Shown: positions 15,181 through 61,545 of the stretch, one piece after another
How positions within the stretch are numbered: the stretch's first letter is position 1
Layout: the number at the start of each line of letters is the position of its first letter
Origin: Oligoflexia bacterium
GTDB lineage: Bacteria > Bdellovibrionota_C > UBA2361 > JBGSMV01
Reading direction: 5' to 3'
DNA length: 64,000 nt
NCBI GenBank assembly: GCA_019694515.1
Contig: JAIBBU010000007.1
Coordinates: 6,573-70,572 of the forward strand
Notes under the pieces: model-generated
The model's database searches: none
What the model was told of the DNA's origin: nothing
The model's input: only the letters and a program-made list of their open reading frames with translations
Position numbers and translations under genes: made by a program

Positions 15181-15290
15181 GCCAGGCAAGGAGGCTTCGG
15201 TTGGTTGAGCCACCGCGAATGTGGGTGTCTACCTCGACATGGGCTGACTACGACGATTAGCGATAGGCATGGAAGAGCTTCTTCGGCCTT

Positions 15291-15812: not shown

Positions 15813-15818
15813 ACGAGT

Positions 15819-18918: not shown

Positions 18919-19938
18919 CTACGAGATACAGAGGACGCGCATCTCTTTTAGATTATCGACGATTTTTCCAACACCGCGTACGACGCAGCTCAACGGGTCT
19001 TTAGCTCGGTGGAACTGAATTCCCGTTTCCCGATTCAACCGTTCACTAAGCCCTTTAAGCAGGGCCCCGCCTCCGGCTAAGTACACACCTCGGGCGATGA
19101 TATCATGGGCTACCTCGGCGCTGGTCTGCTCAAGGGCGGTTACTACAGAGGAGATAATTGCTGAGATCGGCTCATTTAGTGCCTCCCGAACCAGCTCGTC
19201 AGAAATCTCGATTTGATGCGGCATCCCGGTGGCGAGCTCGCGCCCGCAAGAGGTAATACTGCGGGCCTTGCCGAATGGCAGCGCTGAACCGATCACCAGC
19301 TTAATGCGCTCGGCTTCAAAGATCCCGATCTGGAGTCCAAAATGCCGCTTCACTTCGCGCTGGATGGCTTCATCCATTTCATCGCCTGCAACTCGAATGG
19401 AGTGCGAATATAGGGTGCCGTTTAAGCTAATAATTGCGACCTCGGTCGTGCCTCCGCCGATATCCACGACCATGTTTCCCACTGGCTTCTCGACCGGCAG
19501 GTCGGCGCCCAATGCCGCCGCCATGGGTTCTTCGACTAACATCACCTCGCGCACCCCTGAGGCTAGAGCAGCATCGATCACCGCACGTTTCTCAACCTGA
19601 GTGATGCCGGAGGGGACCCCGATCACTATTCTGGGTTTATGAACCGACCTCGATCGACGGGCCTGCCGCAGCATGAAGTCGATCATCAAGGAGGTCATAT
19701 CAAAGTCGGCAATCACGCCGTCCTTCATCGGCCTGATGCAGCGCACGGCGCGGGAGGTCTTGCCGAACATACGTTTAGCAGCGTTTCCCACGGCGACCGC
19801 TTTGCCGCTCTCTTCATCGACCGCCACCACGGAAGGTTCATTCAGGATGATGCCGCGATTGCGCACGTATACGAGGGTATTGGCGGTTCCCAAGTCCATG
19901 GCCATGTCATGCGACCACAGCGAACCCAGAAAACCCAT
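18919..19938 (-). CDS. mreB: Rod shape-determining protein MreB (actin homologue)
   Basis: MGFLGSLWSHDMAMDLGTANTLVYV..., then DIGGGTTEVAIIS and the actin-fold phosphate motifs. Start placed at the ATG at 19938, preceded by AGAGGG; the ORF track extends to 20010. Confidence 0.9.
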   Translation of the reverse strand: MGFLGSLWSHDMAMDLGTANTLVYVRNRGIILNEPSVVAVDEESGKAVAVGNAAKRMFGKTSRAVRCIRPMKDGVIADFDMTSLMIDFMLRQARRSRSVHKPRIVIGVPSGITQVEKRAVIDAALASGVREVMLVEEPMAAALGADLPVEKPVGNMVVDIGGGTTEVAIISLNGTLYSHSIRVAGDEMDEAIQREVKRHFGLQIGIFEAERIKLVIGSALPFGKARSITSCGRELATGMPHQIEISDELVREALNEPISAIISSVVTALEQTSAEVAHDIIARGVYLAGGGALLKGLSERLNRETGIQFHRAKDPLSCVVRGVGKIVDNLKEMRVLCIS

Positions 19939-19990
19939 CAACCCTCTGCCGGAGGGCCGCGGAAGCTCCAGCGCCGAAGGAACGGAGAGA

Positions 19991-21151
19991 CTAAGCTCGG
20001 CGGAACTCATACAACTCTCCCTGTTTAAGCTGGGAACTTTCGAGGACCGCGGTGTCGGCGATTAATCGCTCCAAGGTTGATGATTTGTAACGGCGATCGC
20101 GCATGCTGCGGCGTGAATAGAGGAATTGCGGCTGCGCGCGACCCACGCAAACGCGTGAGCAGGCCGCCGAAATTCGATTTTCATAGAAGGAGCTGGTCAT
20201 AGTGTCGAGGCTAGCGAGCAAGTCGCCATTCGCCAGGGTGAGGAGCGGGCAGCCTGGGGGCAAGGACTGTTTCACCAGGCGATGCATCTGCTCTACCAGT
20301 TTTAAGCATTCGCCGGTGCCGAGCTCGATCTCAAGCTCTTCAAAATTCTTGAGCTTGATCCGCAGCACTTCAAGTGAGTCGCGTCCGATCGTCTCCACGA
20401 GTTTGATCGTCTCCGACAAAAAGTGTGACCAGGTCTCGGCGTTGCGAGTAACTGGAGCTCCGCGAGCATGCAATCGGAGCAGATTGGAAACCTCGAGCGA
20501 AAGATCTTCAAGCAATTTCCCCTGCAGTTTGGAAAATGCAAAGGCCTTGCGGCTGTCGCATGCTATTACACCGGACATCGCAGTCGCATCTTGCGTCACA
20601 TCTCCCCGCATTGGCAGAGCCACTGGAATGCCGATAAAGCTCTTGAGCTGCTGATCATGGGTGTAGATTCCGAGTGTGCGGCTGTCCCTCTCGAAAGGAG
20701 AGACGTGAATTGAACGGCGATGTTTTGCGACCCAGCCGATTAATCCGGTGCTAACCGCCAAACGGCAATTAGGCAGCAGTTCTCGGCTCAGCGAGTGCAG
20801 CCCGGCCAATCCGAGATAGCTCTCCGCGGAGGAAGCCGTTCTGCCTAGCGCGGTTGCTTGGCCTTCTAAATATTCTTCCGGCAAAAAAATGAAGCAGCTA
20901 TGCGCATCCGAAATGTTTGCACCAAAACGCGCCAATCGGCAGAGATCCCGTTTCATGCCGCTTTCAAATCCGGCACCTGCATGCATCGGTGGAGCTGAGC
21001 TGCTGATATTCCGGCTGGCTGAACTCCGCGCTTGAAGATCATCAAACGCACTATGCTCTATGGGACTGTTCTCTATGGGACTGCTCTCTAGGGGATTTTT
21101 CACCACAACGAAATTCCTTGCCCAGCAAAGTCGTGGACTTCCGAGCGACAA
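19991..21151 (-). CDS. Hypothetical protein with GAF-like domain
   Basis: The central region STGLIGWVAKHRRSIHVSPFERDSRTLGIYTHD...IGIPV resembles a GAF small-molecule-binding domain. The N-terminus contains the short tandem repeat SPIENSPIE, so the true start is uncertain. Confidence 0.5.
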   Translation of the reverse strand: MSLGSPRLCWARNFVVVKNPLESSPIENSPIEHSAFDDLQARSSASRNISSSAPPMHAGAGFESGMKRDLCRLARFGANISDAHSCFIFLPEEYLEGQATALGRTASSAESYLGLAGLHSLSRELLPNCRLAVSTGLIGWVAKHRRSIHVSPFERDSRTLGIYTHDQQLKSFIGIPVALPMRGDVTQDATAMSGVIACDSRKAFAFSKLQGKLLEDLSLEVSNLLRLHARGAPVTRNAETWSHFLSETIKLVETIGRDSLEVLRIKLKNFEELEIELGTGECLKLVEQMHRLVKQSLPPGCPLLTLANGDLLASLDTMTSSFYENRISAACSRVCVGRAQPQFLYSRRSMRDRRYKSSTLERLIADTAVLESSQLKQGELYEFRRA

Positions 21152-21237
21152 ATGGATCTATGCGCTATAAATCCGCGAAATTAAAGGTAACAGACGAGGC
21201 TGTCTTGGACAATCTGCAAAATTGCAGGAGCTGCGGA

Positions 21238-22824
21238 TCAGGTCACTTCTTCGGCTGGTTCGCCAGCGGAGTTGTCATCCTCGAGGGAGCTGGCCGGCTC
21301 CGGAATGGGAATATGGCCGTGCTGCACAGTAGTGCGCTGTTCCCGACTGGATTCAAACTCAAACTCGTATTCGTCGGCCCTCAAGCGGCCGTCTGCCAGG
21401 ACAAAAATCTTGGCGCCATAGTGGGTTTCAAGCTCATTTAGGTCGCGTTTCTTGCTATTCAGGAGAAAAAGCGCAGCGCCGGGTGCTAAACGTGCCTTGA
21501 CCAGGCTGACGTGCCCAACAATGATCCCCGATTGGATCTTACGCAGGGCTTCCAAAGCTACCAGCTCCGGATTACGGATCCTCCCCGTTCCCTGACATTC
21601 AGAACAATCCAGATGGCTCTGGCTGGTTAAGGCGCCCCGCAGCCTTTGCCGGGACATCTCTAGCAGACCGAACTTGGAAAGCCTGCCGATCTCGATCCGG
21701 GCCTTATCGGTCTTGATCGCTTCTCTCAGACGGCGCTCTACCCCCGCTTTGTGGCGTCGGTCGGTCATATCGATGAAATCCACCACGATCAGTCCGCCCA
21801 AATCGCGCAACTTTAGCTGTCTAGCGATCTCGTCGGCCGCTTCGAGGTTGGTCTTGTAGGCTGTTTCTTCGATACTGCCCTCATTGGTAGCCTTTCCAGA
21901 GTTAACATCTATAGCTACGAGCGCTTCCAGCGAGTCAATCACTATGGCGCCGCCCGATCGAAGCTTAACCTCAGGCTTGAAGGTCTCAAGAACCTGTTCC
22001 TCGATCCGGTGATGCGCCAAGAGCGGCTGCTTGTCCTTGTAAAGTACAACGCGCGAACGATATCGCGGCATTACCTCATCCACGAAGGCGCGCACACGCT
22101 TAAATGTCTCGACGTCATCGATCAAGATCTCGCGGATCTCAGGGGTAAAATAGTCGCGGATGACGCGGGTGGCTAAGTCACTCTCTTTATAAAGCAGCGC
22201 TGGGCAGCTGGCGTTCTGCGAATCATTGGTGATCCGCTCCCACAGCTTTAGCTGCAAGGAGAGGTCCCGTCCTAAGTCACTGAGTGAACGATCCAGCCCG
22301 GCGGTACGTATGATCATGCCGACCCCGGCGGGCATCTCCAGCTCCTGAGCCAGCTTCTTTAGCCGTTTGCGCTGCTCGGAATCACTAATTTTTCGCGAAA
22401 TTCCGCCGCGTTCGCTGCCTGGCATAACCACCAGGTAACGTCCCGGAAGCGAAAGGTAGGTTGTCAGGGTCGCGCCCTTAAGGTCACGCTCCTCCTTGAC
22501 TACCTGTACTACCAGCTCCTGACCGGGCTCCAAGACATCCTGGATCCGGACCCGATAGCCACGCCCCGTCTCTCGCGAGCTAGAGCGGAAATAGGCGGGG
22601 TGTACGTCGTTAATCTGGAGAAAGCCGTTACGCTGGGTCCCGATATCGAGAAAGGCCGCCTGAAGACTAGGCTCGATTCTGGAAATTCGAGCCTTATAAA
22701 TATTCCCTTTTAGTTTGCGCCCGAGATCGGATTCGATCTCAAGTTCAACCAAACTGGAACCTTCGGTAATTGCGATCCTGATCTCTTCCGGATGGACCGC
22801 ATTGATGAGCATGCGCCGATCCAT
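21238..22824 (-). CDS. rng: Ribonuclease E/G family endoribonuclease (RNase G-like: S1 domain plus catalytic core, no scaffold tail)
   Basis: S1 domain (GNIYKARISRIEPSLQAAFLDIG); DNase-I-like catalytic region (LVAIDVNSGKATNEG...GGLIVVDFIDM). 528 aa, the size of RNase G. Confidence 0.9.
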   Translation of the reverse strand: MDRRMLINAVHPEEIRIAITEGSSLVELEIESDLGRKLKGNIYKARISRIEPSLQAAFLDIGTQRNGFLQINDVHPAYFRSSSRETGRGYRVRIQDVLEPGQELVVQVVKEERDLKGATLTTYLSLPGRYLVVMPGSERGGISRKISDSEQRKRLKKLAQELEMPAGVGMIIRTAGLDRSLSDLGRDLSLQLKLWERITNDSQNASCPALLYKESDLATRVIRDYFTPEIREILIDDVETFKRVRAFVDEVMPRYRSRVVLYKDKQPLLAHHRIEEQVLETFKPEVKLRSGGAIVIDSLEALVAIDVNSGKATNEGSIEETAYKTNLEAADEIARQLKLRDLGGLIVVDFIDMTDRRHKAGVERRLREAIKTDKARIEIGRLSKFGLLEMSRQRLRGALTSQSHLDCSECQGTGRIRNPELVALEALRKIQSGIIVGHVSLVKARLAPGAALFLLNSKKRDLNELETHYGAKIFVLADGRLRADEYEFEFESSREQRTTVQHGHIPIPEPASSLEDDNSAGEPAEEVT

Positions 22825-23311
22825 AAAACTCGTCCTGCATTTGGGATCAGACGATTGCCAGCTCGAGCATCACCGGTCGACCGATCTACGGTCTCCCGAT
22901 TAGTACGCAGCATTGTTCCCGAAACTCGGGCGGCTGCAGAGCAATGTTCCAAGGCTTGAAAAATCATCGAGCTAAGCGAAATAGAAATCTGATCCGGTTA
23001 AGGTTAAAAAGAAAAAACTCTCAAAGAAAAATCTATGCAATTCTACTCATTAGAATTTTTCGCCGTAGGTTTCTTGGAAGTACCGTCTGGACCGGCGGGG
23101 CCGAACCAGACATCAAGTGTACTCGTCCCAAGATTCCAGGGCTATCCGGACACCAATTGGCTGTCCGGAACCTGTGGAGTATACCTATAGATATAGGAGG
23201 ACAGAAGGGCCATCAAGTTTTCAGAAATAAAAGACGTTAATCCATTGAAATAACTTGCGGGAATCCTATCTGCCCCGAAAAACTAACGATTTACCCTATC
23301 GGTGTTCTATT

Positions 23312-23632
23312 ATGAGACTAGTTGTTTTACGTGGTTCAGGCCAGGGAAAGGCTTTTCAGTTGGAGCAGGGTAGCAATCTGATCGGTCGCTGGGATCCCGA
23401 CAGCGGGGCCTTCCCCGAGATCGACCTGGAGGAGGAAGACCCGGAAGCTAAGGTCTCCCGCAAACATGCGGTGATCGAATGTACGGGTGAAATGGTTACG
23501 ATTGAGGACCTGGGGAGCAGAAATGGTACCTATCTAAATCGCGACCAAAAGCTCGAACCCGGTAGGCAGTACGACCTGAAAGTTGGCGACGAGCTGATTG
23601 TAGGCAAGACTTTCTTGCGGTTCGAAAATTAG
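23312..23632 (+). CDS. FHA-domain protein (single domain, about 106 aa)
   Basis: MRLVVLRGSGQGKAFQLEQGSNLIGR...VSRKHAVIECTGEMVTIEDLGSRNGTYLN is a canonical FHA domain. The ORF could start at 23255 instead. Confidence 0.7.
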   Translation: MRLVVLRGSGQGKAFQLEQGSNLIGRWDPDSGAFPEIDLEEEDPEAKVSRKHAVIECTGEMVTIEDLGSRNGTYLNRDQKLEPGRQYDLKVGDELIVGKTFLRFEN

Positions 23633-23651
23633 CTTCCGGTCTGCAGCTATT

Positions 23652-24014
23652 TTATTTTAATAGCGTTTCGATGTGATTGACCAAAACCGCAGGTTTGCAC
23701 GGTTTGGTGAGCACTAAATTACATCCTGCATCCAGGGCTTCCTGATGAACCTCGGGGTCATCGAGCGCCGTGAACGCAACTATCGGCAGCTTCAGCCCTT
23801 TGGCTCTAATTTGCCGGACGCACTCTTGCCCATTCATCTTAGGCATCATCAGGTCGATCAGAATTATATCGGGACCGACTTCCTCAACGCACTGCAATGC
23901 TGAAATGCCGTCGGTGCGACGGACAACCTCAAAACCTTTATCTTCGAAAAGATAGTCAACGATATCGAGCGCCGTGAGGTCGTCGTCAATAATTAGTATT
24001 TTTTTATTATCCAT
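23652..24014 (-). CDS. CheY-like single-domain response regulator (receiver only)
   Basis: ILIIDDD...DIILIDLMMPKMNG...LTKP. The phospho-acceptor Asp and Lys are conserved. 120 aa. Confidence 0.85.
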   Translation of the reverse strand: MDNKKILIIDDDLTALDIVDYLFEDKGFEVVRRTDGISALQCVEEVGPDIILIDLMMPKMNGQECVRQIRAKGLKLPIVAFTALDDPEVHQEALDAGCNLVLTKPCKPAVLVNHIETLLK

Positions 24015-24406
24015 CTACGCCGATACGTTTTGCTAAAATTTAGACCACTTCTACTTATATCCTATTACTTGATGCGCGGGCGCGTGGGAAAGATCCAGCG
24101 GTAAATTCAGTAACGGCGCGAAACGAAGTTTTAACCACGAGCGCGCTTGGTATAAGCAAAATCCTGTTTAAATCTACAGATTTCCGGATCTTATTAACAA
24201 CACCGTGTCTCCTATATACAGTACAGCCCAAATGGGCTTTTTAGATACTAAGCTCCGGTTGCCAGGAATTGAGTGCTGAAGTCGTTGTCGAAGTAAGATT
24301 GCGGCGCCCCGCCTCATTCCGCGCTATGAGTCCTGCGGTTGTAACATAATCCGGGAAGCGCTTTAGTATCGCATTCCGAACTGTATTTTCAGTTTGGTCA
24401 TAAAAC

Positions 24407-25747
24407 ATGTTCGCACTTGAAATAGATTTTCGCGACGGCATCTCCGATCCGGAGACCATCTTCGTGCGCCGCCCGCACGCGCTGGTTGGCGCTTCCGACT
24501 ACGCGCATGTCGTGGTGGAGGACATGAAAGAGTTGGGATATCAAATCCGCTTAACTCGCGACCTGGGGCGCAGCTTTCGTTGTCGTTTAGTCTCAAACGA
24601 ACCGGTCGAGGCCGCGGCTCATCTTGAAGGGCTGTATGAGGGAGAGGCGCTGCTGGATACGGGCAGCGTAAAGCTCCGCATCACAGCGCTTGATACAGAT
24701 TTGGTGTTCAAGGACGGCGAAACCCCGGATAGTGCAGGCGCAAGGATTCTACGGCAGGCTTGTGCTGCAGGTAGTCCAACCTTTCCAGCATTGGTGGTGG
24801 CCGGAAGCTTTCCGCTCGTGATCTCTTTTTCCGAAGAGCAGCCGCTTTACCTCGGGCGCTCCAAGCAGTGCGTAGTGCGCTTTGATTCCTCCGAGATCTC
24901 CGCGCGGCATGCGCGGATGGGATTTGAAAACGGTAAATTCTGGATCGAGGATTTGGGTTCCACGAACGGGACCTTTGTAAATCAGCAGCAGGTATCCGGA
25001 AGAGTTAATGTCGAACCTGGAGCTCCGGTAACTCTGGGACGTGAGATCTCAATTGCGGGTGTGACTTCTCCGCAGGAGCTGGCGCAAGCGCTGCACGCAG
25101 AGGAGCCGCGCATCGATCGCAATGCGCCGCTGGCGAATAGATTTCCCGTGTTGATTTCCACCTCCGAAGTCGCCCGGCCAGCTCGAATGGTTTTAAGTGC
25201 CGGCGCAACGGTGACGATCGGGCGGGACCCATCCAGCGATATGTGGATTGGGGCTCCGCATGTATCGCGCAAGCACTGTGCGGTGTTCTTGCATGATAAC
25301 GGTACACTATCGGTCACCGACCACAGTACCAATGGGACCGCCTATACAGGCGGGGTCCTAAAACGTGGCAGCTCGATTCAGGTACGGGAAAGGCCGGAAA
25401 TCCTCGATTTGGGCAGCGGAGTGACGGTGGCGGTCTGTTTAAACGAGGAACAGGAGCGCGTCTTTATCGCTGCGCATGGCTCGCCGCTGGCTTTTGGCGA
25501 ACCTGAAAGAGACCTGCCCAAGCGGGAAAGCCCTGTCATCGCTCATGGCACCCGCTTTTCCGGAGAAGATACGATCTGGAATACCCAACAGATGCGGGCG
25601 CATATGGAGCGCAGCTTCGTGGTATGGCTGCTGGAATACTTCAGATCGTGCGGGTTTTTCGGACGGGCCGCTTTGTTTTGTCTCGTGTTCGCCTTTATAA
25701 TGGTTTTGGCTTTTATTGTATTGATTTTGGGACGCGTTTTCCTGTAG
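24407..25747 (+). CDS. Multi-FHA-domain protein with C-terminal TM anchor; candidate SctD (YscD/CdsD-like inner-ring component)
   Basis: Three FHA-like segments, e.g. LYLGRSKQCVVRF...ARHARMGFENGKFWIEDLGSTNGTFVN and VTIGRDPSSDMWIG...SRKHCAVFLHDNGTLSVTDHSTNGTAY. C-terminal hydrophobic helix FCLVFAFIMVLAFIVLILG. Sits at the head of the sctJ operon. Confidence 0.7.
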   Translation: MFALEIDFRDGISDPETIFVRRPHALVGASDYAHVVVEDMKELGYQIRLTRDLGRSFRCRLVSNEPVEAAAHLEGLYEGEALLDTGSVKLRITALDTDLVFKDGETPDSAGARILRQACAAGSPTFPALVVAGSFPLVISFSEEQPLYLGRSKQCVVRFDSSEISARHARMGFENGKFWIEDLGSTNGTFVNQQQVSGRVNVEPGAPVTLGREISIAGVTSPQELAQALHAEEPRIDRNAPLANRFPVLISTSEVARPARMVLSAGATVTIGRDPSSDMWIGAPHVSRKHCAVFLHDNGTLSVTDHSTNGTAYTGGVLKRGSSIQVRERPEILDLGSGVTVAVCLNEEQERVFIAAHGSPLAFGEPERDLPKRESPVIAHGTRFSGEDTIWNTQQMRAHMERSFVVWLLEYFRSCGFFGRAALFCLVFAFIMVLAFIVLILGRVFL

Positions 25748-25823
25748 CAGAAGGCTGCGCGCGGACCGCGTGAATTTTTGGTTTTTGCAGTTTTTGGTTT
25801 TCAGATAGTAACGGGAGAGAGTC

Positions 25824-26855
25824 ATGGCAACTGACAGTACTGAATTGACCTTCGTTCGATGCCCTTCATGCCGCAGCTTAGTGCCGGCTTCTCAGACACG
25901 CTGCCGGATGTGCGGTGCATCGCTGGATGCTGGAACCCAGCAGGGTGGCGATGATGCCGCGCGGAAGTCGGGACGAGTCAAGCAGCGTACTATGTCGCAG
26001 CCGCAAAGCGACTTAAATTCGGCTGCCGATCAGCTGCGCAAAGAGCATAAGAGCTCCGGTATGGAAGAGCTTCCGGATAGTGGCGATGAGATCTCAGTCG
26101 ATGATCCGTTGAGCGGATATGTCGAAGAAGTCGAGAGCGCCGAAACGGATGCGCCGGCTGAAGCCCCGGCGGCAAAGAGCGCTAATGGTGGCGGGTATGC
26201 ATCGCATGAACGGCCTAAAGAGGCTTCGCCGATGCCTCCCAAGCCGCGCGATGAGCAGAAACCGAAAGTATTCGCTGAGAGCGGTAGAAAGCAGAGTGGC
26301 GGTTTGTCCTTCAATAAGGAGCGATCCGAGCCGCCGGTTGCACGCAATTTGGCTTCCGCTGCCGAGTCTGACGATGCTTGGAGCAGTGTCAATGAAGAAT
26401 TACCGGTTGAAGAACCGGTGCGTGAGCCGCGTGCTTCACGTGAAAAGGAACAGCGCCACACACCGCCGTCAGCTGCGCCAGCTCGCGAAGGAGCTAAGAA
26501 GGCTGAGCAGCGCCCCGGCCGGCTCTTTGGGTGGCTGGTAAGCTATGCCAATCCGGATGGAAGCGCCTTAGAGCTGCGCGAAGGGAAGTTCTTCGTCACA
26601 GCCGGCAGCCTCAAGCCTAGTGATATGATCATTCAAGACCCTAGCATTTCGACTCCGCACGCTTTGGTCAACATCAGCGCGGCGCAGGGATTCGCAGTGC
26701 AGGACCTGATGAGCGATCGCGGTGTCTGGATTAGGCGTCGTGAAGGCGACACCTACCAGCGTGAGGAGAGTCTGCAGGTTAAGCATGGCGACTGGCTGCG
26801 GTTTGGTGATGTTGAGTACCTGGTGACTTTGATCGCACACGTCGGCGCGAAGTAA
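25824..26855 (+). CDS. Zinc-ribbon plus disordered linker plus C-terminal FHA-domain protein
   Basis: N-terminal CPSCRSLV...CRMCG zinc ribbon. Long Ala/Glu/Pro/Ser-rich low-complexity region. C-terminal FHA (GKFFVTAGS...SISTPHALVNISAAQGFAVQDLMSDRGVWI). Confidence 0.7.
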   Translation: MATDSTELTFVRCPSCRSLVPASQTRCRMCGASLDAGTQQGGDDAARKSGRVKQRTMSQPQSDLNSAADQLRKEHKSSGMEELPDSGDEISVDDPLSGYVEEVESAETDAPAEAPAAKSANGGGYASHERPKEASPMPPKPRDEQKPKVFAESGRKQSGGLSFNKERSEPPVARNLASAAESDDAWSSVNEELPVEEPVREPRASREKEQRHTPPSAAPAREGAKKAEQRPGRLFGWLVSYANPDGSALELREGKFFVTAGSLKPSDMIIQDPSISTPHALVNISAAQGFAVQDLMSDRGVWIRRREGDTYQREESLQVKHGDWLRFGDVEYLVTLIAHVGAK

Positions 26856-26978
26856 GAACGTGTGCCGAGGGGGCCCAAATGCTAAGCTTTGGGCTGCCCC
26901 TGACAATGCTCGGGTGGCCGGACGCTTGCGGTTGCGGCACCGGAAAATCTCTAGGAAAGAGAACGTCCTGGAACTGAA

Positions 26979-27854
26979 ATGGGTTATCGAACTAGGTTAA
27001 GCGCATTCAAGGCACTTCGCATCGGCGTCTTAGTCGGCGTTTTGCTGCTGATTTCGGGATGCAATACCTCCGTAGTGCTGAATGACCTCTCGCAGTCAGA
27101 AGCCTTGGAAGTCATAGCGGCGCTCAATGCCACCGGCATTAGCGCCTATTCAGCGGAAGATTCGGGCGCCCGGGGAAAATTTAGTGTGACCGTTGATTCA
27201 GCCCGCTATTCCGAAGCGGTCGCAATCATCAATGACAAACGGCTGCCGCGCCGCAGCGAATTTCGCAAGATGATTGAACCCAAAGGGCTGCTGCCGAATT
27301 CCCGCGAGCTTGAAGCGTTGCGGGTGGATAAGGCGCGCGCGATCGAACTTAAAGAACTTCTCGAGAATCATCCTGATATTGCCTCTGCCGAAGTCACGGT
27401 TCGTCAAAAATTTCTGGCTGAGGATGAAGCCCCCTCAGTTGGAGCTATGGTCGTAACGCGGTCCGGCTCGACGCTATCCACTGATCAGCTGCGCACGATG
27501 ATCCAAAGTTTCGTGCCCGGTATTAATCCTGAGCGGGTGGTCGTGGTTGCACACGCGCTGGATTCTTCAGGCAATGTGTTCAAGGCCGAAGGAATCCTGA
27601 ATGATAATCAGAAACTTATCCATGTGCCGCTAGCGGGCTTCCTGCTGGGTTGGCGTGTGGCTGAAGCCGATCAGAATGGATTGGCGATTACGATTGTGGC
27701 CTTCGTCCTGGCGGTAGGAATTCTAGGGGCAATTTTGGGTTACTCCTACGGTTCATTCAAACGTTCGGAAGATGCTTTAAATGATGCACTCCCGGAACCC
27801 GCAATTCGGGCGGGGCGCTTTGAACGACCGGTTAAGACTTTACCGGAGGAATAA
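26979..27854 (+). CDS. sctJ: Type III secretion inner-membrane ring lipoprotein SctJ (YscJ/EscJ/PrgK family)
   Basis: Signal peptide plus LISGC lipobox, then LSQSEALEVIAALNATGISA (compare YscJ [20 protein letters not shown]). About 290 aa with a C-terminal TM. A lipoprotein of this size argues against flagellar FliF. Confidence 0.85.
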   Translation: MGYRTRLSAFKALRIGVLVGVLLLISGCNTSVVLNDLSQSEALEVIAALNATGISAYSAEDSGARGKFSVTVDSARYSEAVAIINDKRLPRRSEFRKMIEPKGLLPNSRELEALRVDKARAIELKELLENHPDIASAEVTVRQKFLAEDEAPSVGAMVVTRSGSTLSTDQLRTMIQSFVPGINPERVVVVAHALDSSGNVFKAEGILNDNQKLIHVPLAGFLLGWRVAEADQNGLAITIVAFVLAVGILGAILGYSYGSFKRSEDALNDALPEPAIRAGRFERPVKTLPEE

Positions 27855-28073
27855 ATGGATTTGCAGCGTTTTCGAGCTCTATCAGAGAAAGATCGCGCCT
27901 TAGTGGCCGTGGCTGTATTAATGGATGGCCGCGATGCGGGTGTGTATTTGGAGAATGATGCTCAGAGCGGTGCGGTGTTAAAGCGGGCGGCGGATGACTT
28001 GGCAGCACAAGAACTCGAGCTGCGAATGACCTACGCTGCTACGCAGTTGCGGGCAGCGCTGAAGGAGGGGTAG
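27855..28073 (+). CDS. Small helical protein of the T3SS operon (function unknown; in the SctK/SctI position)
   Basis: 72 aa. Its ATG starts immediately after the sctJ stop (TAA at 27852-27854, ATG at 27855). Confidence 0.4.
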   Translation: MDLQRFRALSEKDRALVAVAVLMDGRDAGVYLENDAQSGAVLKRAADDLAAQELELRMTYAATQLRAALKEG

Positions 28074-28391
28074 GTGGATAGCCCCGAGCGGCGTGAGGAG
28101 ATTGCGGCATATATCGATAAGGTCAATGCGGAGCTGGCGAAGCGCCGCAAGCGGGTGCTGGAGCTGGAGAAGGAATTAAGTGATTTGCAGATGCAGGTAG
28201 AAGAGGCTGGTACAAAGATCAGAAGAGGGGTGGGGGATGCGGCCGTTGCCGCCGCTTCAGCCAGCTTTATGGCCTCCGTCGGCAAACGCCGTAAATTATT
28301 GGATGAGCAGTTAGGGGAGGCGCGCAGCGATGTACAACGAGCCGAGGATCGGCTTAGGACCGCCACCCAGGAAATGGATCAATTGAATTAG
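28074..28391 (+). CDS. Coiled-coil protein of the T3SS operon (candidate SctL/SctO, FliH/FliJ-like)
   Basis: 105 aa, charged heptad-repeat-rich. GTG start immediately after the upstream TAG, with GGAGGGG upstream. Confidence 0.45.
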   Translation: MDSPERREEIAAYIDKVNAELAKRRKRVLELEKELSDLQMQVEEAGTKIRRGVGDAAVAAASASFMASVGKRRKLLDEQLGEARSDVQRAEDRLRTATQEMDQLN

Positions 28392-28405
28392 GGAGCAACT
28401 TAGCC

Positions 28406-29434
28406 GTGAAGGCCCAAGCAGGAACGGACAGCGATATTTCAGTGGTACCTTGGGAGCCCGAGAAGACTCTTGAGAAGATGGCGCTGCTGCAGGCCAGGCT
28501 GTCGCGGGGGTTTTTGCGCTCTGACCCTTCGAAATGGTTCCCGGGATTTGCGATGCAGTGGATTCCGCTTACCAGCGCCTTCGGTGTTGAGCTGCAGATA
28601 CGAACTGTCGAGCCGGTGCTGGCCGCACCCCGCGGTTTGAGCGGCTACGTTGGTGCAGTGGACGATGAGCCGATTGCAGTGGGGATGGAAGATCGAGATG
28701 CGCGGCTGTTGACGGCAGCTTTCTGTAGTGGCGCACTGGCGGGAGCTCAGGGGGTCCTGCGGGAATATTTGGCGCGCCGCTTCATAACCAGCATGGCTTT
28801 ATCATGGAGCGGTCCCGAGTCTTCGGTGGTGACCTTTGATCGCAGCATGAATATGTCGCATATGCGCGAGTCGGCAGCGATTCGGATGGAACTCTTGGTC
28901 AATGATCAGGCCTGCAATCTATGGGTCTTGATGGGGAAATTTTTGGTTGAACGTTTGGACGCATTGTGGCGCAAACAGGTGCGTTCCACTGCGCGCCAGG
29001 AGTCCGGTGCAGCGCGCGAACTAGCTCTAGAGGTTACACAGTTAGCTGTGCCGCCTTCGCTTCTAGCGGAGTACATGAAGCCTCGGGCAATCATCGATCT
29101 CGAGACGATCGTCTCAGACCGGGTCTTGCTCCGCGAAGGCGGCAAGCCGCTTTCCTATGCGCGGTTGGTGAACATCGAGGGTCGCTACGGCATCTCCTTG
29201 CTAGACGAGCCGGTAGCCAACCCTAGACTGCCCGACGGTACTACCAGACTAGCTGTCGAGCTGGGGCGCATTGCGGTCGATGGCAATCAATCAGCGGAAT
29301 TTCTTCAGAATGGCGCAATCTGGGAGACCGGTCTGAAACTGGGTCCCGCGGCCAACATGGTAATAAACGATGAAAAGGTCGGCTCTGCCGAGCTGATGAT
29401 CTTTGAGGGGCGCTTTGCGCTGCGGGTAACCTAG
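28406..29434 (+). CDS. sctQ: Type III secretion cytoplasmic-ring protein SctQ (YscQ/FliN/FliM family; C-terminal SpoA domain)
   Basis: The C-terminus LQNGAIWETGLKLGPAANMVINDEKVGSAELMIFEGRFALRVT is a FliN/SpoA-type domain. A second SpoA-like segment lies upstream (VLLREGGKPLSYARLVNIEGRYGISLL). Confidence 0.7.
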   Translation: MKAQAGTDSDISVVPWEPEKTLEKMALLQARLSRGFLRSDPSKWFPGFAMQWIPLTSAFGVELQIRTVEPVLAAPRGLSGYVGAVDDEPIAVGMEDRDARLLTAAFCSGALAGAQGVLREYLARRFITSMALSWSGPESSVVTFDRSMNMSHMRESAAIRMELLVNDQACNLWVLMGKFLVERLDALWRKQVRSTARQESGAARELALEVTQLAVPPSLLAEYMKPRAIIDLETIVSDRVLLREGGKPLSYARLVNIEGRYGISLLDEPVANPRLPDGTTRLAVELGRIAVDGNQSAEFLQNGAIWETGLKLGPAANMVINDEKVGSAELMIFEGRFALRVT

Positions 29435-29526
29435 TTCTCGGTCGAGCGCTTTGAATCAATCTGCATTTGTCAGCCACACCCCTTAAGTGGGTAGCCTCAA
29501 AAGTTGCGATTGCTTATAGTTGAAGC

Positions 29527-30111
29527 ATGGATGGCTTTCTGCAGTCGCTGCTGGCAATTTTAGTCTTCACCGGCTTTGTTAAGATCTTCACAGCTCTGTG
29601 TATTGCGCGCTACGGTCTGGGCCTCGATCAAGCGGGCTTCGGCATCGTCATCGGAGTTTTGGCTTTGGCCCTCTCGATCTTCGCAGTGGAGCCGCAGCTT
29701 AGGCCCTATGGGGGCTGGAGCATCCTGAATGGTGGTGAAAACCAGAAGGTAGATCTGCCTAGGACCTTTACGCCGTTCTTGGTCAAGCATTCGGATGCGA
29801 AAATTATTTCGGAACTTGAAAAGCTGCGCCCAAATTCCGAAGGGCAAAAGAACGACACACCGGAGTTCTCATTACTGACAGTGAGTTTTTTGCTGAGTGA
29901 GTTGAAATCAGCATTCGAAATTGGGCTGTTACTTCTCATTCCGCTGATCATCATCGATCTTTTAACCTCCAATATTTTAATGGCGCTGGGTATGCAGCAG
30001 CTTTCCCCGGCGTTGGTCTCCCTGCCGATTAAGTTGCTGCTATTCTTAGCGCTGGATGGCTGGACTCTGTTTAGCGAAAAGCTGCTCAATTCATATACGG
30101 GGGCTGGATAA
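29527..30111 (+). CDS. sctR: Type III secretion export-apparatus protein SctR (YscR/FliP family)
   Basis: LIPLIIIDLLTSNILMALGMQQLSPALVSLPIKLLLFLALDGW matches the FliP/YscR signature (...GMMMLSP...PFKLLLFVLVDGW). No cleavable signal peptide, as in non-flagellar SctR. Confidence 0.85.
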   Translation: MDGFLQSLLAILVFTGFVKIFTALCIARYGLGLDQAGFGIVIGVLALALSIFAVEPQLRPYGGWSILNGGENQKVDLPRTFTPFLVKHSDAKIISELEKLRPNSEGQKNDTPEFSLLTVSFLLSELKSAFEIGLLLLIPLIIIDLLTSNILMALGMQQLSPALVSLPIKLLLFLALDGWTLFSEKLLNSYTGAG

Positions 30112-30366
30112 ATGGACGCCGTATTATACAGCATGTTTATTGAGGCTATTCGCGTACTGCTGTTGGTCGGGGTGCCATCGGCGCTGCTGATCGGCTGTGC
30201 AGGGGTATTGGCTGGCGCGTTTCAGAGCGTTACCTCGATTCACGATCCGGCGATTGGCTACACTGCGCGGCTGCTGGCGCTGATTGCGGCGTTGTATTTC
30301 TTGGGCGGATTTTTTTGGGAACGGGTGCGGAACCTGCTTGAGCAGGCACTGCTCGCACAGTCATGA
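30112..30366 (+). CDS. sctS: Type III secretion export-apparatus protein SctS (YscS/FliQ family)
   Basis: 84 aa, two TM. Overall FliQ-like pattern (AIRVLLLVGVPSALLIGCAGVLAGAFQSVTSIHDPAIGY). ATG immediately follows the sctR stop. Confidence 0.8.
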   Translation: MDAVLYSMFIEAIRVLLLVGVPSALLIGCAGVLAGAFQSVTSIHDPAIGYTARLLALIAALYFLGGFFWERVRNLLEQALLAQS

Positions 30367-30980
30367 TCTTAGAAATCTCATTGCTGACGATGCTGCTCGG
30401 CGGCGCCCTGTTGTTCGGAATGTGGCCGGGACTGGTGATGTTAGCGGGGACTTTTGCCTACGCCGCCTCTCAGTACCATCCCGCTGCCGTTGGTCTGGTA
30501 GTCTTAACCTGTGCCGCGGTGACGGCGGTTCCGCTTAGTGCCGCAGTGTGCGGTGCCGCGCTCGAGCGCCATACTTTTGTGCATGTGCGACGTAATGGGC
30601 AGCTGAATGCGCTGGTCCTTGCCACTGCTACAACCGCATTCTTGCAGACAGGGCTGCCGGTTTCCTTTTTCACTGTGATTGAACGTGCGCAATTGCATGG
30701 CAAAGCGCTCGATTATGGGCAGGCTATCGCAGGGATTATCAGCGCCGCACTGTCAGTCGGTTCATTTGCCGCGCTGCTAATCATGGGTGTCGTATTGCTG
30801 GCAGAGGTGCCGCTAGTGATTGCCGGCCGCATCGGAGAATTTAAAGCAGACCATCACATCACACTTTTTCGGCCGCTGCTTGTGGTATTTGTGCTTTCCA
30901 TGGCGATGAACCTCTTGCTGGGCTTGTTTTTCGAGGAGCTCGCACCGTTACGCATTTTGCCGCTGGGGAATCAACCATGA
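30363..30980 (+). CDS. sctT: Type III secretion export-apparatus protein SctT (YscT/FliR family), short form
   Basis: 205-aa polytopic membrane protein in the canonical R-S-T-U position. ATGA overlaps on both sides. Confidence 0.6.
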   Translation: MILEISLLTMLLGGALLFGMWPGLVMLAGTFAYAASQYHPAAVGLVVLTCAAVTAVPLSAAVCGAALERHTFVHVRRNGQLNALVLATATTAFLQTGLPVSFFTVIERAQLHGKALDYGQAIAGIISAALSVGSFAALLIMGVVLLAEVPLVIAGRIGEFKADHHITLFRPLLVVFVLSMAMNLLLGLFFEELAPLRILPLGNQP

Positions 30981-31639
30981 GCGAGAGGACGGAATGGCCG
31001 ACTGCTGCCAAGCTGGGAGAACTAAGGGAGCGCGGTTTAGTGCCGGTCAGCAGGCTGGCGCTTTGGTCTGGCGCGTTAATCGGCTGTGTTATTGCAGTCT
31101 TTGTTCTAGGCAGCACCTGGAATTTCCCGCAGCGCTGGCTGGAAATTGGTGCGGCGACCCAAGCAGATTCTCCGAATCTAATGGCCGAGCTAGCGGCGCA
31201 TCAGGGCGAGATAGTTAAACTGTTATGTCTGCCGGCTTTGGGAGCAGCTCTCTTGGTAATCCTTGCGGGGGTAGTTCAAACCCGCTTTCTTTTCAGGCCT
31301 GCCACGCTCGCGCCTCAGGGTGAGCGGTTGTGGAACCCAGCAGCAGCAAGCTTTGCAAGGCCCATTGCCCGCCCCCTATCGGCGGTGCTCTGGCTGGTGC
31401 TTGGAATTTTTTGTGGATTCCTGCTTTTTAGTTCGCAGTCGGCGCTGCTCTTAGGACTGCTAAATCAGAGCGTTGCTCCGGGGATTGCCCGGCTGACCGA
31501 CATGCTGAAGAGCTATGCCTTGATCGCCGCAGCGGCTGCTTTGGCAGGGGCTATTCTTGGTTGGATTGCGGCACGCCTCATTTTTATGCTGAGACATCGC
31601 ATGACTCGCCGTGAGGTGCAAAGCGAGGTTGGTGAGTAA
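30977..31639 (+). CDS. sctU: Type III secretion SctU (YscU/FlhB family), membrane domain only; lacks the C-terminal autocleaving (NPTH) domain
   Basis: The N-terminus RTEWPTAAKLGELRERGLVPVSRLA matches the FlhB/YscU N-terminus (KTEAPTPKRL...G.VPKS.EL). Four TM segments. The ORF ends at RMTRREVQSEVGE, equivalent to the MSKQEVKDE linker that normally precedes the cytoplasmic domain. Confidence 0.7.
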   Translation: MSERTEWPTAAKLGELRERGLVPVSRLALWSGALIGCVIAVFVLGSTWNFPQRWLEIGAATQADSPNLMAELAAHQGEIVKLLCLPALGAALLVILAGVVQTRFLFRPATLAPQGERLWNPAAASFARPIARPLSAVLWLVLGIFCGFLLFSSQSALLLGLLNQSVAPGIARLTDMLKSYALIAAAAALAGAILGWIAARLIFMLRHRMTRREVQSEVGE

Positions 31640-31708
31640 CTCGGTGTAATTTGTGGCTTTGCCTGATCTGGCCGCCCCGAGCTATCATCAGCCTGAGTTA
31701 GTAGAACC

Positions 31709-31966
31709 ATGAAACGCAGCATATTTGACCCCCCTGAAGCCTTCTCGTTGTCCCCGCTACTCGCATTGCTGCCGCAAAAAGGACAGCTCTCAAAATTAGA
31801 GACCCTCTCGGCTTCGCTCTTTGCCCGCTATGAAAGGGTTACAGGGCTGCTGGGCGAGATTGCGGCGGGCTCCTCCCCTGAGTTAGAAACCCGTCTTTCG
31901 CGGGAGCAAAATATGCTGCGCCAGGTCTTGGAGTGGCTCAACATTAAGCCCGAAGGTCAGGCATGA
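31709..31966 (+). CDS. Small hypothetical protein, ATGA-coupled to the TPR chaperone gene (candidate chaperone partner or substrate)
   Basis: 85 aa. Its stop overlaps the next start. No needle (SctF) signature. Confidence 0.4.
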   Translation: MKRSIFDPPEAFSLSPLLALLPQKGQLSKLETLSASLFARYERVTGLLGEIAAGSSPELETRLSREQNMLRQVLEWLNIKPEGQA

Positions 31967-32397
31967 ACCAGGTGCGTCCGCGAGTGCCCTCTGAAATCCT
32001 GAAGCGCGGTTATACCGACGACGAAATCGCGAACATTTACGAATTAGGCCGGCTATTCTTAGAGAATGGCGATCTAAGACGCGGTGAGACGATTATGTTG
32101 GGCTTGCTGGAGATCATGGGCGAATACTCACCGGCCTGGTTAGCCATGAGTTACATTCATTTTGCGAACAAGGCCACCGAGTCGGCAGTAAACGCGGCGC
32201 AAAACGCGTTGAAGCACGATCCCGAAAGTGTCGAAGCCATGTTGGCCCTGGTGGCGGGGCTTCTTACTCTGGGCGACTTTAATAGCGCCGGTACATATCT
32301 GGGTGAGGTGGGTGAGAAATTAGACGCCGGACTTAGCGACGATCCGCGAGTCGTACGTTTCTATAAGGCCATGCTGGCGCGTTATCAAAATCGCTGA
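31963..32397 (+). CDS. TPR-repeat protein, candidate T3SS class II chaperone (SycD/LcrH/CesD-like)
   Basis: 144 aa. Three TPR-like helical hairpins (GDLRRGETIMLGLLEI...; AWLAMSYIHFANKATESAVNAAQNAL; AMLALVAGLLTLGDFNSAGTYL). Size and location are typical of translocator chaperones. Confidence 0.55.
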   Translation: MNQVRPRVPSEILKRGYTDDEIANIYELGRLFLENGDLRRGETIMLGLLEIMGEYSPAWLAMSYIHFANKATESAVNAAQNALKHDPESVEAMLALVAGLLTLGDFNSAGTYLGEVGEKLDAGLSDDPRVVRFYKAMLARYQNR

Positions 32398-32445
32398 GTT
32401 CGTTTTGACCGCAGGACCTGCACCTAGTGCGTGCCGGACTGAAAT

Positions 32446-33045
32446 ATGAGCAGAGCACGTCTCGTACCCTTCCTGATATTTTTGAGCTGCGCCGTCGCGC
32501 TGCAAATTCTAACCATGTGGTTAATGGGGCGTGTGTGGTGGTGCGGCTGCAACGAGTTTTTCATCGCATCGTGGAGTATTTGGAGCCGCCATAATTCGCA
32601 GCATCTGATTGATCCCTACTCATTCAGCCATCTCTCTCACGGGTTGATATTTTTTCTTTTTTTGAGATGGTGGGGGCCGCGGCCGAATGTCGATCTAAAG
32701 TTGGCGATCGCCTGTACGATCGAGATTGTTTGGGAGATTGCCGAGAATACCAGCTTCATAATTGAGCGCTATCGTAGTGTAACGATCTCCCTGGACTATT
32801 TCGGTGATAGCATCGCCAACTCGGTTGCTGATTTGATCTGCTGCCTCGCAGGATACTTGCTGGCACAAGCGCTCGGAGTGCGCCGTACGATCTTGCTATT
32901 CATCATGATCGAAATAGTACTGCTTCTCACGATCAGAGACTCGCTCACGATCAATGTGATCATGCTGCTTTGGCCGTTGCAATCGATTCTGCGTTGGCAG
33001 CAGGCAGGACTGCTGGAGCTTGGTACGATGCTAATGCCGACTTGA
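32446..33045 (+). CDS. Polytopic membrane protein, DUF2585/UPF0314-like
   Basis: 199 aa. Motif WWCGCNEFF early in the sequence. Five or six hydrophobic helices. The family assignment is tentative. Confidence 0.45.
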   Translation: MSRARLVPFLIFLSCAVALQILTMWLMGRVWWCGCNEFFIASWSIWSRHNSQHLIDPYSFSHLSHGLIFFLFLRWWGPRPNVDLKLAIACTIEIVWEIAENTSFIIERYRSVTISLDYFGDSIANSVADLICCLAGYLLAQALGVRRTILLFIMIEIVLLLTIRDSLTINVIMLLWPLQSILRWQQAGLLELGTMLMPT

Positions 33046-34251: not shown

Positions 34252-34559
34252 ATCCGCTAAGTTAACTGATGCTGGAAAGCTCTCCTCGGACTCTAGCTTA
34301 TTAGATCCATCTCCGGCCAGCCGGGGAGCGGATAAGTTGCGGAACCGATGTGACTTATCTCCCCGATAATTCAATTAATTCAATAAGTTAACAAAAAACT
34401 GAAGTGCTTATACGTATTCGGCTGATAGGTGGCAAGAGGACCTGTTACGCCCTGCAACGGGAGGTTTGGGCGGACATCTTCTCGACAGTACGTCCTCGCA
34501 ACGTACCGAGTTCGAAAAGGGAAAGCTCACTTCCGGTTGTCAGTTAGGAGATGGAATCA

Positions 34560-55284: not shown

Positions 55285-55291
55285 TGCGCAG

Positions 55292-61541: not shown

Positions 61542-61545
61542 GGTA

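Follow-up and report, generated by a model that had tools for sequence, protein, structure and literature searches.

Does a group of forkhead-associated (FHA) proteins encoded next to genes resembling those of a type III secretion system (T3SS) belong to the machine that these genes specify, or does it only lie beside it? The question is raised by a locus of an Oligoflexia bacterium, contained in a 64,000-nucleotide stretch of contig JAIBBU010000007.1 (assembly GCA_019694515.1, positions 6,573 to 70,572 of the forward strand). We call this whole stretch the window and count positions from its first letter. Three FHA proteins and a CheY-like receiver occupy positions 23312-26855, and a T3SS-like gene array follows. 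We argue that two of the FHA proteins, FHA446 and ZnFHA343, may well be integral parts of a phospho-gated, T3SS-like and Tad-linked machine encoded beside them, rather than stray neighbours, and we put the probability of this reading at about 60%. It draws on the genes present, the identity of their domains, conserved residues, membrane topology and gene linkage, as well as on the presence and linkage of kinase and phosphatase genes in relatives, all of which were established directly.

A check of open reading frames (ORFs) places all four genes where a preliminary description of this DNA had put them, and its claim of three FHA proteins and a CheY-like receiver ahead of a T3SS operon agrees with both the ORFs and the Pfam matches (curated cut-off of Pfam FHA, PF00498: 20.7 bits). 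Lengths are given in amino acids (aa).

23312..23632, plus strand: FHA106, a stand-alone canonical FHA protein of 106 aa (Pfam FHA, 55.1 bits)
23652..24014, minus strand: CheY-like single-domain receiver of 120 aa (Response_reg, 92.9 bits)
24015..24406, no strand: divergent intergenic region, 392 bp, AT-rich (sequence read)
24407..25747, plus strand: FHA446, a tail-anchored tri-domain FHA protein of 446 aa (Pfam, NCBIfam, alignment, AlphaFold)
25824..26855, plus strand: ZnFHA343, zinc ribbon, linker and FHA domain, 343 aa (Pfam FHA, 31.1 bits)

The FHA446 product is identical to protein MBX7137398.1. From FHA446 onwards, all genes through that of a TPR protein ending at 32397 are co-directional, with short gaps or overlaps.

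A conserved FHA gene pair beside T3SS-like genes

Relatives were collected by pattern-scanning a single genome for each species, which matched 273 species-level genomes; 80-81 loci were fetched and examined. All 273 matched genomes are uncultured metagenome-assembled genomes (MAGs), mostly labelled Bdellovibrionota, Bdellovibrionales or Deltaproteobacteria; the Lake Mendota freshwater series is the source of many. Where at least 1.5 kb of downstream sequence was available, the ZnFHA gene directly follows the FHA446 gene in every case (64/64 loci), and where at least 4.5 kb was available, the genes for SctJ, the small protein o72 and SctQ then follow, again without exception (56/56). The FHA genes have therefore been kept beside T3SS genes in relatives, as the preliminary description would lead one to expect. 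The FHA446-ZnFHA-SctJ-o72-SctQ block is intact in every arrangement, and its upstream side varies, consisting either of RNase G or of a Tad-SctV-pseudokinase block. Taken together with this variable upstream side, the linkage counts define the conserved core of the locus as the FHA446/ZnFHA pair plus SctJ-o72-SctQ. Across the examined loci the ORFs are intact, their length and order are near-constant and protein identity is 40-57%. The gene arrangement is not due to chance.

FHA446, a tail-anchored FHA protein

FHA446 matches Pfam FHA with 103.3 bits over two stretches. It consists of three domains, D1 (residues 1-100), D2 (~122-222) and D3 (~243-346), a disordered tether (366-402) and a transmembrane helix (~417-445). 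In an alignment of 33 family members at ~50% identity, three blocks are conserved; a further stretch varies, and the C-terminus is hydrophobic without keeping its sequence. In these 33 sequences the canonical FHA residues of D2 (G150-R151, S165-x-x-H168, S185-T-N-G-T189) and D3 (G272-R273, S287-R-x-H290, S307-T-N-G-T311) are invariant or nearly so. Strictly invariant are G150, S165, H168, S185, T186, G188 and T189 in D2, and G272, R273, S287, R288, H290, S307, N309 and G310 in D3. The two domains also align with each other (hhalign probability 95%). Judged by these residues, D2 and D3 are predicted phosphothreonine-binding FHA domains.

D1 is different. It has no profile similarity to D2 or D3 (hhalign probability 0.1-0.2%) and no match to Pfam FHA, only one of 25 orthologues showing a weak Yop-YscD_cpl match, and in the 33-sequence alignment it is devoid of the canonical phosphothreonine-contacting residues. 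An AlphaFold model of the whole protein (predicted local distance difference test score, pLDDT, 82) has three beta-sandwich domains, a disordered segment (366-402) and, at the end, a helix spanning 417-445. The top 50 Foldseek matches of this model in the PDB are all FHA domains (E ~1e-7 to 1e-5; template-modelling score, TM, to the target at most 0.85). They include Rad53 and, at E ~1e-7 to 1e-6, the FHA domains of GarA, OdhI, Rv1747 and CT664, that of CT664 being among the best structural matches (TM 0.83-0.85 to target). A model of D1 alone (pLDDT 91) finds almost only FHA folds in the PDB; the matches are weak (E 0.013-1, TM 0.5-0.6), the best being the FHA domain of EssC (5fwh), and YscD (4a0e, 4d9v) is also among them. 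Because of this weakness, D1 is best called FHA-like. FHA446 thus has two certain FHA domains and one that is FHA-like by predicted fold alone. The description of the protein as 'triple-FHA' holds for D2 and D3, by sequence and by fold; for D1 it fails by sequence, and the AlphaFold and Foldseek results make this domain FHA-like.

The claim that the 446-aa protein is membrane-anchored was confirmed: its hydrophobic maximum lies at residues 423-441, five residues before the C-terminus, and forms a C-terminal tail anchor. In 232 family representatives (cluster representatives from an exhaustive profile search) the membrane helix is always terminal. Longer members, of up to 693 aa, were considered as carriers of a periplasmic SctD-like domain, and this was rejected: the extra length is disordered linker in front of the tail anchor.

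These features bear on a first alternative, namely that FHA446 is the SctD of this lineage, purely structural, with FHA domains that act as phospho-independent contact modules, as has been argued for YscD and PrgH. Members of the SctD family (YscD, PrgH, MxiG, CdsD/CT664) likewise have cytoplasmic FHA domain(s) and one transmembrane helix and are encoded near sctJ, and CdsD shares with FHA446 the possession of more than one FHA domain. In the window only the ZnFHA gene separates the FHA446 gene from sctJ. FHA446 has the cytoplasmic FHA-type domain followed by a single transmembrane helix that is expected of an SctD; it matches Pfam Yop-YscD_cpl with 54.5 bits (cut-off 33.2) and, weakly, the SctD equivalog TIGR02500 (E 0.0012). 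D1 is degenerate like the FHA domains of YscD and EssC, and YscD is among its fold matches. However, the equivalog score of 17.9 bits is far from an equivalog-level match (cut-off 86), and FHA446 differs from the SctD family in having three domains, two of them canonical, and in ending five residues past its transmembrane helix. As it is a tail-anchored protein lacking the periplasmic ring-building half, we do not file it as SctD. None of the 232 family representatives has a periplasmic domain, which leaves the protein unable to build the outer inner-membrane ring or to reach a secretin. Moreover, D2 and D3 retain their canonical phosphothreonine-binding residues across ~50%-identical sequences, and a kinase and a phosphatase are genetically linked to the system (see below). 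When the family profile was searched against PDB sequences, the FHA domain of ArnA came out on top, and the closest relatives are the phospho-binding FHA domains of ArnA, GarA, OdhI and Rad53, not YscD, PrgH or MxiG. We regard a purely structural SctD as unlikely. The resemblance to CdsD and YscD that had been proposed applies to the cytoplasmic half of the protein and does not extend to the periplasm (0/232 representatives).

ZnFHA343 and its paralogue FHA243

ZnFHA343 combines an N-terminal zinc ribbon of the form CxxC-X10-CxxC (C13, C16, C27, C30) with a linker of 199 residues and a C-terminal FHA domain at ~residues 232-340. The linker is of mixed charge with acidic blocks (13% hydrophobic residues; 38 Asp and Glu versus 29 Lys and Arg). 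All 67 orthologues, which range from 301 to 556 aa, carry the zinc ribbon (67/67). Their linkers are variable in length and keep the short motifs RV[RK]QxT (T56 in ZnFHA343), DDPLSxY and ESGR..LSF. The threonine motif is strictly present in 55 of the 67, and in ~62-64 if variants recognised by eye are included. The FHA domain is conserved but non-canonical, lacking the Gly-Arg pair and having S-x-R-G instead of S-x-N-G-T. It has a paralogue in FHA243, a protein of 243 aa encoded between the PP2C and Hanks kinase genes of relatives (E 1e-16), the N-terminus of which, RARNRTVMLTPE, echoes the RVRQRT motif and has RxRT in common with it.

The architecture of zinc ribbon, long acidic disordered linker and FHA domain had been called unusual; a zinc ribbon combined with an FHA domain is not without precedent. 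Sulfolobus ArnA, a Ser/Thr-kinase-regulated protein controlling the archaellum, has a zinc-binding N-terminus and an FHA domain. ArnA differs in being an archaeal regulator at the level of transcription and in lacking a long linker with conserved motifs; furthermore, it was the FHA446 profile that the ArnA FHA domain matched, not that of ZnFHA.

Layouts in which a disordered linker joins an N-terminal threonine motif to a C-terminal FHA domain, as in ZnFHA343 and FHA243, are also known from GarA and OdhI, both of which are among the top PDB matches of the FHA domains of the FHA446 family. In contrast to GarA and OdhI, the FHA domains of ZnFHA and FHA243 are without the canonical Arg and Asn, ZnFHA adds a zinc ribbon, and the proposed target is a membrane machine rather than a metabolic enzyme.

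A second locus links Tad, SctV, a kinase and a phosphatase

In relatives, the missing partners of the system are encoded at a second locus with the gene order PP2C, FHA243, Hanks kinase, TadZ/CpaE-like, Flp, RcpC, TadA, TadB, TadC, SctV and pseudokinase. This locus is present in all five relatives with a visible flank (5/5; RcpC uncalled in L086), and a truncated form occurs in one more. The Hanks kinase, STK504, is a protein of 504 aa with the motifs GAGSMG (GxGxxG), VAIK, HRDLKPEN and DFG, a C-terminal membrane helix and 305 bits to a PknB-type kinase model; by its motifs it is predicted to be catalytically competent. PP2C is supported by Pfam matches in 5 loci of relatives. SctV of relatives matches FHIPEP with E 1e-158 and scores 552 bits as SctV versus 493 as FlhA. 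In the complete genome CP129486.1 (2.28 Mb), the FHA/Sct locus has the gene order of the window except for far downstream genes, and SctV lies in the second locus, 1.4 Mb away. One further SctV candidate, P0157, was considered as the window MAG's own and rejected, as it belongs to a different MAG, SSF8.

Eight of the more divergent relatives have the Tad-SctV-pseudokinase block fused directly upstream of the FHA446 gene, in the order RcpC, TadA-type ATPase, TadB, TadC, SctV, pseudokinase. In one of these fused loci (L050) the two sets form a single co-directional array of 17 genes with small gaps, RcpC-TadA-TadB-TadC-SctV-pseudokinase-FHA446-ZnFHA-SctJ-o72-SctQ-SctR-S-T-U-o85-TPR, and seven loci besides it share the pseudokinase-FHA446 junction. 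The pseudokinase is a membrane protein of ~800 aa with HEAT repeats and a degenerate kinase domain, from which the HRD Arg and the DFG Asp are missing.

Hanks kinase and PP2C genes had been predicted to exist elsewhere in the genome. They do exist in relatives, CP129486.1 included, and are tied to the same system. Given their linkage to Tad and SctV, the idea of Ser/Thr-kinase wiring is supported by comparative genomics, with the array of five relatives as its basis.

Two further observations concern these loci. In the second loci (L084, L086-L089), RcpC is directly followed by TadA (RcpC uncalled in L086) with no RcpA secretin visible between them, and the sole ATPase of the combined gene set is TadA-type. 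In L039, the TPR gene is directly followed by the gene (15040-16299) for a 419-aa Hanks kinase with a receiver fused to its C-terminus (Pkinase E 4e-54 plus Response_reg), which unites the kinase and CheY themes in one protein.

The position of the kinase and phosphatase genes could also be taken to mean that they, together with the FHA and CheY genes, control the Tad pilus, or else envelope and cell-cycle processes in general, adjacency to sctJ being a product of slow genome rearrangement. In the second locus the PP2C-FHA-kinase genes are indeed placed at its Tad end, FHA genes are abundant in the Tad/Kil loci of predators (PMC8460266; bioRxiv 10.64898/2026.07.08.737194), and MreB-GAF-RNase G synteny upstream of the FHA genes is conserved too. 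Nevertheless, the FHA446-ZnFHA pair stays with SctJ-o72-SctQ under either upstream context, with or without adjoining SctRSTU, and the genes are co-directional with short gaps. As SctV is located inside the Tad array, the Tad and T3SS-like gene sets are moreover inseparable. Regulation of Tad or of general processes alone therefore appears to us quite improbable.

The T3SS-like array is reduced and divergent

Downstream of ZnFHA343, the array of the window continues with the following genes.

26979..27854, plus strand: SctJ-like inner-membrane ring lipoprotein, 291 aa (YscJ_FliF, 49 bits)
27855..28073, plus strand: o72, small conserved helical protein (detected in 64/83 loci)
28074..28391, plus strand: o105, coiled-coil protein, weakly FliJ/SctO-like (FliJ, E ~0.007-0.01)
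28406..29434, plus strand: SctQ-like C-ring/sorting-platform protein, 342 aa (FliMN_C, 34.2 bits)
29527-30111, plus strand: SctR (FliP, 131 bits)
30112-30366, plus strand: SctS (Bac_export_3, 37.9 bits)
30363-30980, plus strand: SctT (position only)
30977..31639, plus strand: SctU, membrane half only, 220 aa (Bac_export_2, partial)
31709..32397, plus strand: o85 (85 aa, helical) and a 144-aa TPR protein, end of the array (TPR_19 and TPR_14 matches)

T3SS components were called with Pfam thresholds and NCBIfam equivalog cut-offs. SctJ, the SctQ-like protein, SctR, SctS and SctU pass their Pfam thresholds (SctJ, FliMN_C, FliP, Bac_export_3 and Bac_export_2), and every T3SS component is far under its NCBIfam equivalog cut-off. 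For SctJ, the YscJ_FliF score compares with a cut-off of 24.4 bits, and 70 bits to TIGR02544 (SctJ) with an equivalog cut-off of 162; the protein has a lipobox (LISGC) and a C-terminal transmembrane helix at ~235-253. The SctQ-like protein exceeds the FliMN_C cut-off of 23.8 bits and weakly matches FliN and SctQ in NCBIfam; 59 of 61 recovered orthologues measure 334-369 aa. SctR scores higher as EscR/YscR (136 bits) than as FliP (107 bits) in NCBIfam. No Pfam match was obtained for SctT. SctU covers positions 2-219 of the 335 in the Bac_export_2 profile and is without the cytoplasmic autocleavage switch domain. The ORFs of 18 SctU orthologues are mostly 208-247 aa long, the outliers being one 62-aa fragment and three 284-aa ORFs, which are over-extended copies of one gene elsewhere called 210 aa. 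The public record lists SctR as 'hypothetical protein K1X83_05420' and calls related SctV proteins FlhA, so routine annotation misses the system.

The small proteins of the array are less easily placed. Among the best-conserved of the locus is o72, with invariant L22, D24, G25, R57 and R66 and a gene that abuts sctJ; searches of Pfam, NCBIfam and the PDB gave no match to it. A coiled-coil ORF at the position of o105 occurs in most of 50 loci examined, some fragments looking like off-frame noise, and the fused locus L050 has no room for one. The o85 gene overlaps the TPR gene by 4 bp and the pair is kept in ~35-40 loci; o85 has no match in Pfam or to needle families, and a profile search against PDB sequences gave nothing meaningful. 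Two candidate identities, a needle-subunit/chaperone pair for o85 and the TPR protein and a FliG-N-like protein for o72, are unsupported, as the profile searches against PDB sequences found nothing meaningful for either. The o85 and TPR proteins are possibly a substrate/chaperone-like pair.

In ~9 loci (L020, L022, L026, L029, L038, L040, L051, L052, L077), SctRSTU were not detected beside SctQ, and there is no room for them because o85 abuts SctQ. In the one traceable genome of this sub-clade (L027 with L086), a SctT-family gene is located just upstream of the PP2C-kinase-Tad-SctV array. A search for relocated SctRSTU genes with the SctR of the window as query returned 74 matches, and the sought contig was not among them.

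The core of non-flagellar T3SS (NF-T3SS) has been defined as SctC, J, N, Q, R, S, T, U and V (Abby and Rocha, 2012). SctJ, Q, R, S, T and U are present in the window, T by position and U as one half, and SctV only in relatives; the 64-kb window encodes no SctV, SctN, SctC or needle gene, and the Pfam tables of six second-locus loci contain neither SctN nor SctC. From its gene complement, the machine is predicted to be an atypical, deeply divergent and reduced T3SS-like inner-membrane apparatus, not an ordinary injectisome. The call of a downstream T3SS operon was accordingly right by Pfam thresholds, and needs correction as to its kind, since the system is reduced and Tad-linked.

Such reduction invites the explanation that the sct-like genes are a decaying remnant of flagellar or injectisome export, which would leave the FHA genes without a working machine to control. 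The scores far under equivalog cut-offs, the loss of the SctU cytoplasmic domain, SctT without a Pfam match, the name 'hypothetical' given to SctR by NCBI and the failure to find an ATPase, secretin or needle gene in the loci are all in keeping with it. Yet intact ORFs with near-constant length and order persist at 40-57% identity across 81 loci examined, the truncated SctU is itself conserved, and the same argument led to the rejection of decay for the Myxococcales systems (PMC3459982). Decay is, in our estimation, very improbable.

The CheY receiver, FHA106 and the upstream region

FHA106 starts with an ATG at 23312, the start position of its orthologues, and keeps G25-R26, S49-R50-x-H52 and S69-x-N71-G72-T73 (25 orthologues). 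The CheY receiver retains a complete set of acidic pocket and phospho-acceptor residues, D10-12, D54, T82 and K104 being conserved in 53 orthologues. Its gene is convergent with that of FHA106 and divergent from that of FHA446 across 392 bp. This intergenic region (24015..24406) presumably holds the promoters of CheY and of the FHA/T3SS-like array; sigma-70-like matches within it are at chance level only, and no sigma-54 consensus is found near the operon start (38 matches window-wide versus 36 expected).

CheY is upstream in 47/66 loci and absent from the 8 fused-type loci and 11 others. Of the 47 loci with CheY, 21 also have FHA106. In eleven loci, RNase G is followed by nothing but non-coding DNA. 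Both CheY and FHA106 are accessory, lineage-specific extras. Among the four genes, fixed linkage to the T3SS-like genes thus holds for the FHA446/ZnFHA pair and not for these two.

The block preceding the FHA genes comprises genes for MreB, for a GAF-domain protein of 386 aa and for a member of the RNase E/G family on the minus strand at 18919-22824, identified by synteny with Pfam-annotated orthologues. It is kept in most relatives with the window-type arrangement.

Relation to known systems

The system closest in logic to the one described here is the Kil/T3SS* of Myxococcus. The Kil clusters of Myxococcus are enriched in FHA proteins, and Kil, which is Tad-like, cooperates with a needle-less and secretin-less T3SS* (PMC8460266, PMC12075869, PMC10433427). 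Abby and Rocha described the T3SS-like system of Myxococcus as an early form of NF-T3SS (PMC3459982). When compared by gene content, both systems have a T3SS-like base without a secretin or needle gene in the loci and an FHA-rich Tad-type system; a TPR (LcrH-like) protein is also common to both, and the lineage studied here is related to known predators. They differ in that here the gene sets are interleaved, with SctV inside the Tad array and eight fused loci (n=8), and in that SctN, SctL and a periplasmic SctD were not found in the loci and SctU has no switch domain. In addition, the array here includes genes for a Hanks kinase, a PP2C and a pseudokinase, and the phylum is a different one. 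According to a recent review, the joint presence of Kil and T3SS* seems to be limited to Cystobacterineae (PMC12428579); the present loci indicate that such Tad/T3SS-like tandems are not confined to this group. How Kil and T3SS* cooperate, and what the FHA proteins of the clusters do, are stated open questions (PMC12075869, PMC12428579). The gene order reported here bears on the question of cooperation, as it places SctV in a Tad operon with kinase, phosphatase and FHA proteins. No description of a Tad-SctV-FHA-kinase arrangement was found in the literature searched.

For the regulation of Kil, Seef et al. cite the threonine-phosphorylation pathway of the Pseudomonas H1 type VI secretion system (H1-T6SS) as a model (PMC8460266). 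The logic of PpkA, PppA and Fha1 in that pathway is the same as here, with a membrane Hanks kinase, a PP2C and an FHA scaffold encoded with an envelope nanomachine. The machine here is instead T3SS-like and Tad, with several FHA proteins including a tail-anchored tri-domain one, and no sequence orthology is implied. In type VII secretion, EssC/YukB likewise carries partly degenerate FHA domains in tandem, membrane-tethered on the cytoplasmic side of the secretion machine. EssC differs from FHA446 in being an FtsK-type ATPase with its FHA domains N-terminal to transmembrane helices, whereas FHA446 has no enzymatic part.

A model of phospho-gated assembly

From the above we infer a model, and the inference extends to every protein contact, to which sites are phosphorylated, to the direction in which regulation runs, to the order of rearrangements and to the biological role. 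The tail anchor would hold FHA446 at the cytoplasmic face of the inner membrane, where the protein may perform the cytoplasmic half of the SctD job by linking the SctJ ring to the SctQ platform. The degenerate, FHA-like D1 would provide a phospho-independent contact, while D2 and D3 would recognise phosphothreonine marks that the Hanks kinase sets and PP2C removes. The likeliest kinase substrates or adaptors would be ZnFHA343 and FHA243, by virtue of the N-terminal R-x-[RK]-T motif, disordered linker and FHA domain of their GarA/OdhI-like layout. Phosphorylation would then gate the T3SS-like apparatus, in its assembly or its activity, jointly with the Tad pilus, and the whole system may work with, or as part of, the Tad pilus machine. 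A precedent for such gating is the involvement of FHA proteins in Pseudomonas T6SS firing, and something similar is suspected for Myxococcus Kil/T3SS*. CheY and FHA106 may have been added later, where an ancestral single array appears to have been split, and could give a sub-lineage an extra two-component input. The biological role is probably a contact-dependent interaction with other cells.

Several points weigh against phospho-gating by FHA446 and ZnFHA343 in this machine. The 64-kb window contains no Hanks kinase, PP2C, SctV or Tad genes, so the wiring that had been claimed finds no support in the window itself, and the evidence for the second locus comes from relatives. In fused loci, the kinase homologue adjoining FHA446 is a pseudokinase and probably inactive by its sequence. 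The claim that the FHA domains read phosphothreonine holds for FHA106, D2 and D3, where the contact residues are invariant or at least 90% conserved, and fails for two of the five FHA or FHA-like domains, D1 and the FHA domain of ZnFHA343, in which the phosphate-binding Arg and Asn are missing. For D1, even the label FHA-like is weak, coming from a predicted structure with weak Foldseek E-values. Sensitive scans for Walker and C-terminal motifs detected no SctN/FliI ATPase in 1.3 Mb of sequence from 86 loci; the only two motif matches were judged, by reading the sequences, to be GH3-like (NagZ-type) glycosidases. A cruder pattern found no SctC secretin in the same 1.3 Mb, and SctL, a needle protein and a full-length or periplasmic SctD were not found in the loci examined. 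Finally, because the MreB-GAF-RNase G synteny is conserved as well, some of the linkage may reflect phylogenetic inertia in a related clade.

The model may be taken one step further. Instead of two cooperating machines, there could be one chimeric envelope machine, which would join a Tad motor and platform (TadA/B/C, RcpC, Flp) to the gate of SctR, SctS, SctT, the membrane half of SctU and SctV, and to SctJ and SctQ. Such a machine would do without the T3SS ATPase, the SctD outer ring and the SctU switch; the tri-FHA protein would replace SctD, and assembly would depend on the kinase and PP2C. We advance this only tentatively and consider it doubtful. If true, it would be a 'missing link' for the cooperation of Tad/Kil pili with the needle-less T3SS* in contact-dependent attack. 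Quite apart from this, the lineage offers a compact and testable parts list for a phospho-gated Tad/T3SS-like machine. It also amounts to a natural experiment in doing without certain T3SS parts: the ATPase, the periplasmic ring of SctD and the switch domain of SctU.

Other features of the window

Within the array itself, a GC-rich hairpin followed by a T-run is located at 25756-25772, nine bases past the FHA446 stop codon. It might attenuate read-through into the ZnFHA343 gene, although promoter-like and terminator-like sites in 22800-32600 are not above chance level. No Rfam families were detected in the window.

Beyond the end of the array, two divergent sigma-70-family proteins of 306 and 302 aa, with weak matches to region 2 and region 4, are encoded at 33454-35459. 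A DUF2585 gene lies between the array end and this pair; in L001, the sole relative annotated downstream, other genes are found there. At 43417-45867 the window encodes a hybrid histidine kinase of 816 aa (PAS-HisKA-HATPase-receiver), which could in principle serve as input to the orphan CheY. A MoxR AAA, DUF58 and VWA cluster with DUF4350 is located at 53172-56656. Two large DUF2298 membrane proteins are encoded within 49562-51667 and 59589-63963, and two PMT-like glycosyltransferase-family proteins at 35723-37429 and 59589-61541. Together, the DUF2298 and PMT-like proteins suggest a theme of envelope glycosylation in the neighbourhood.

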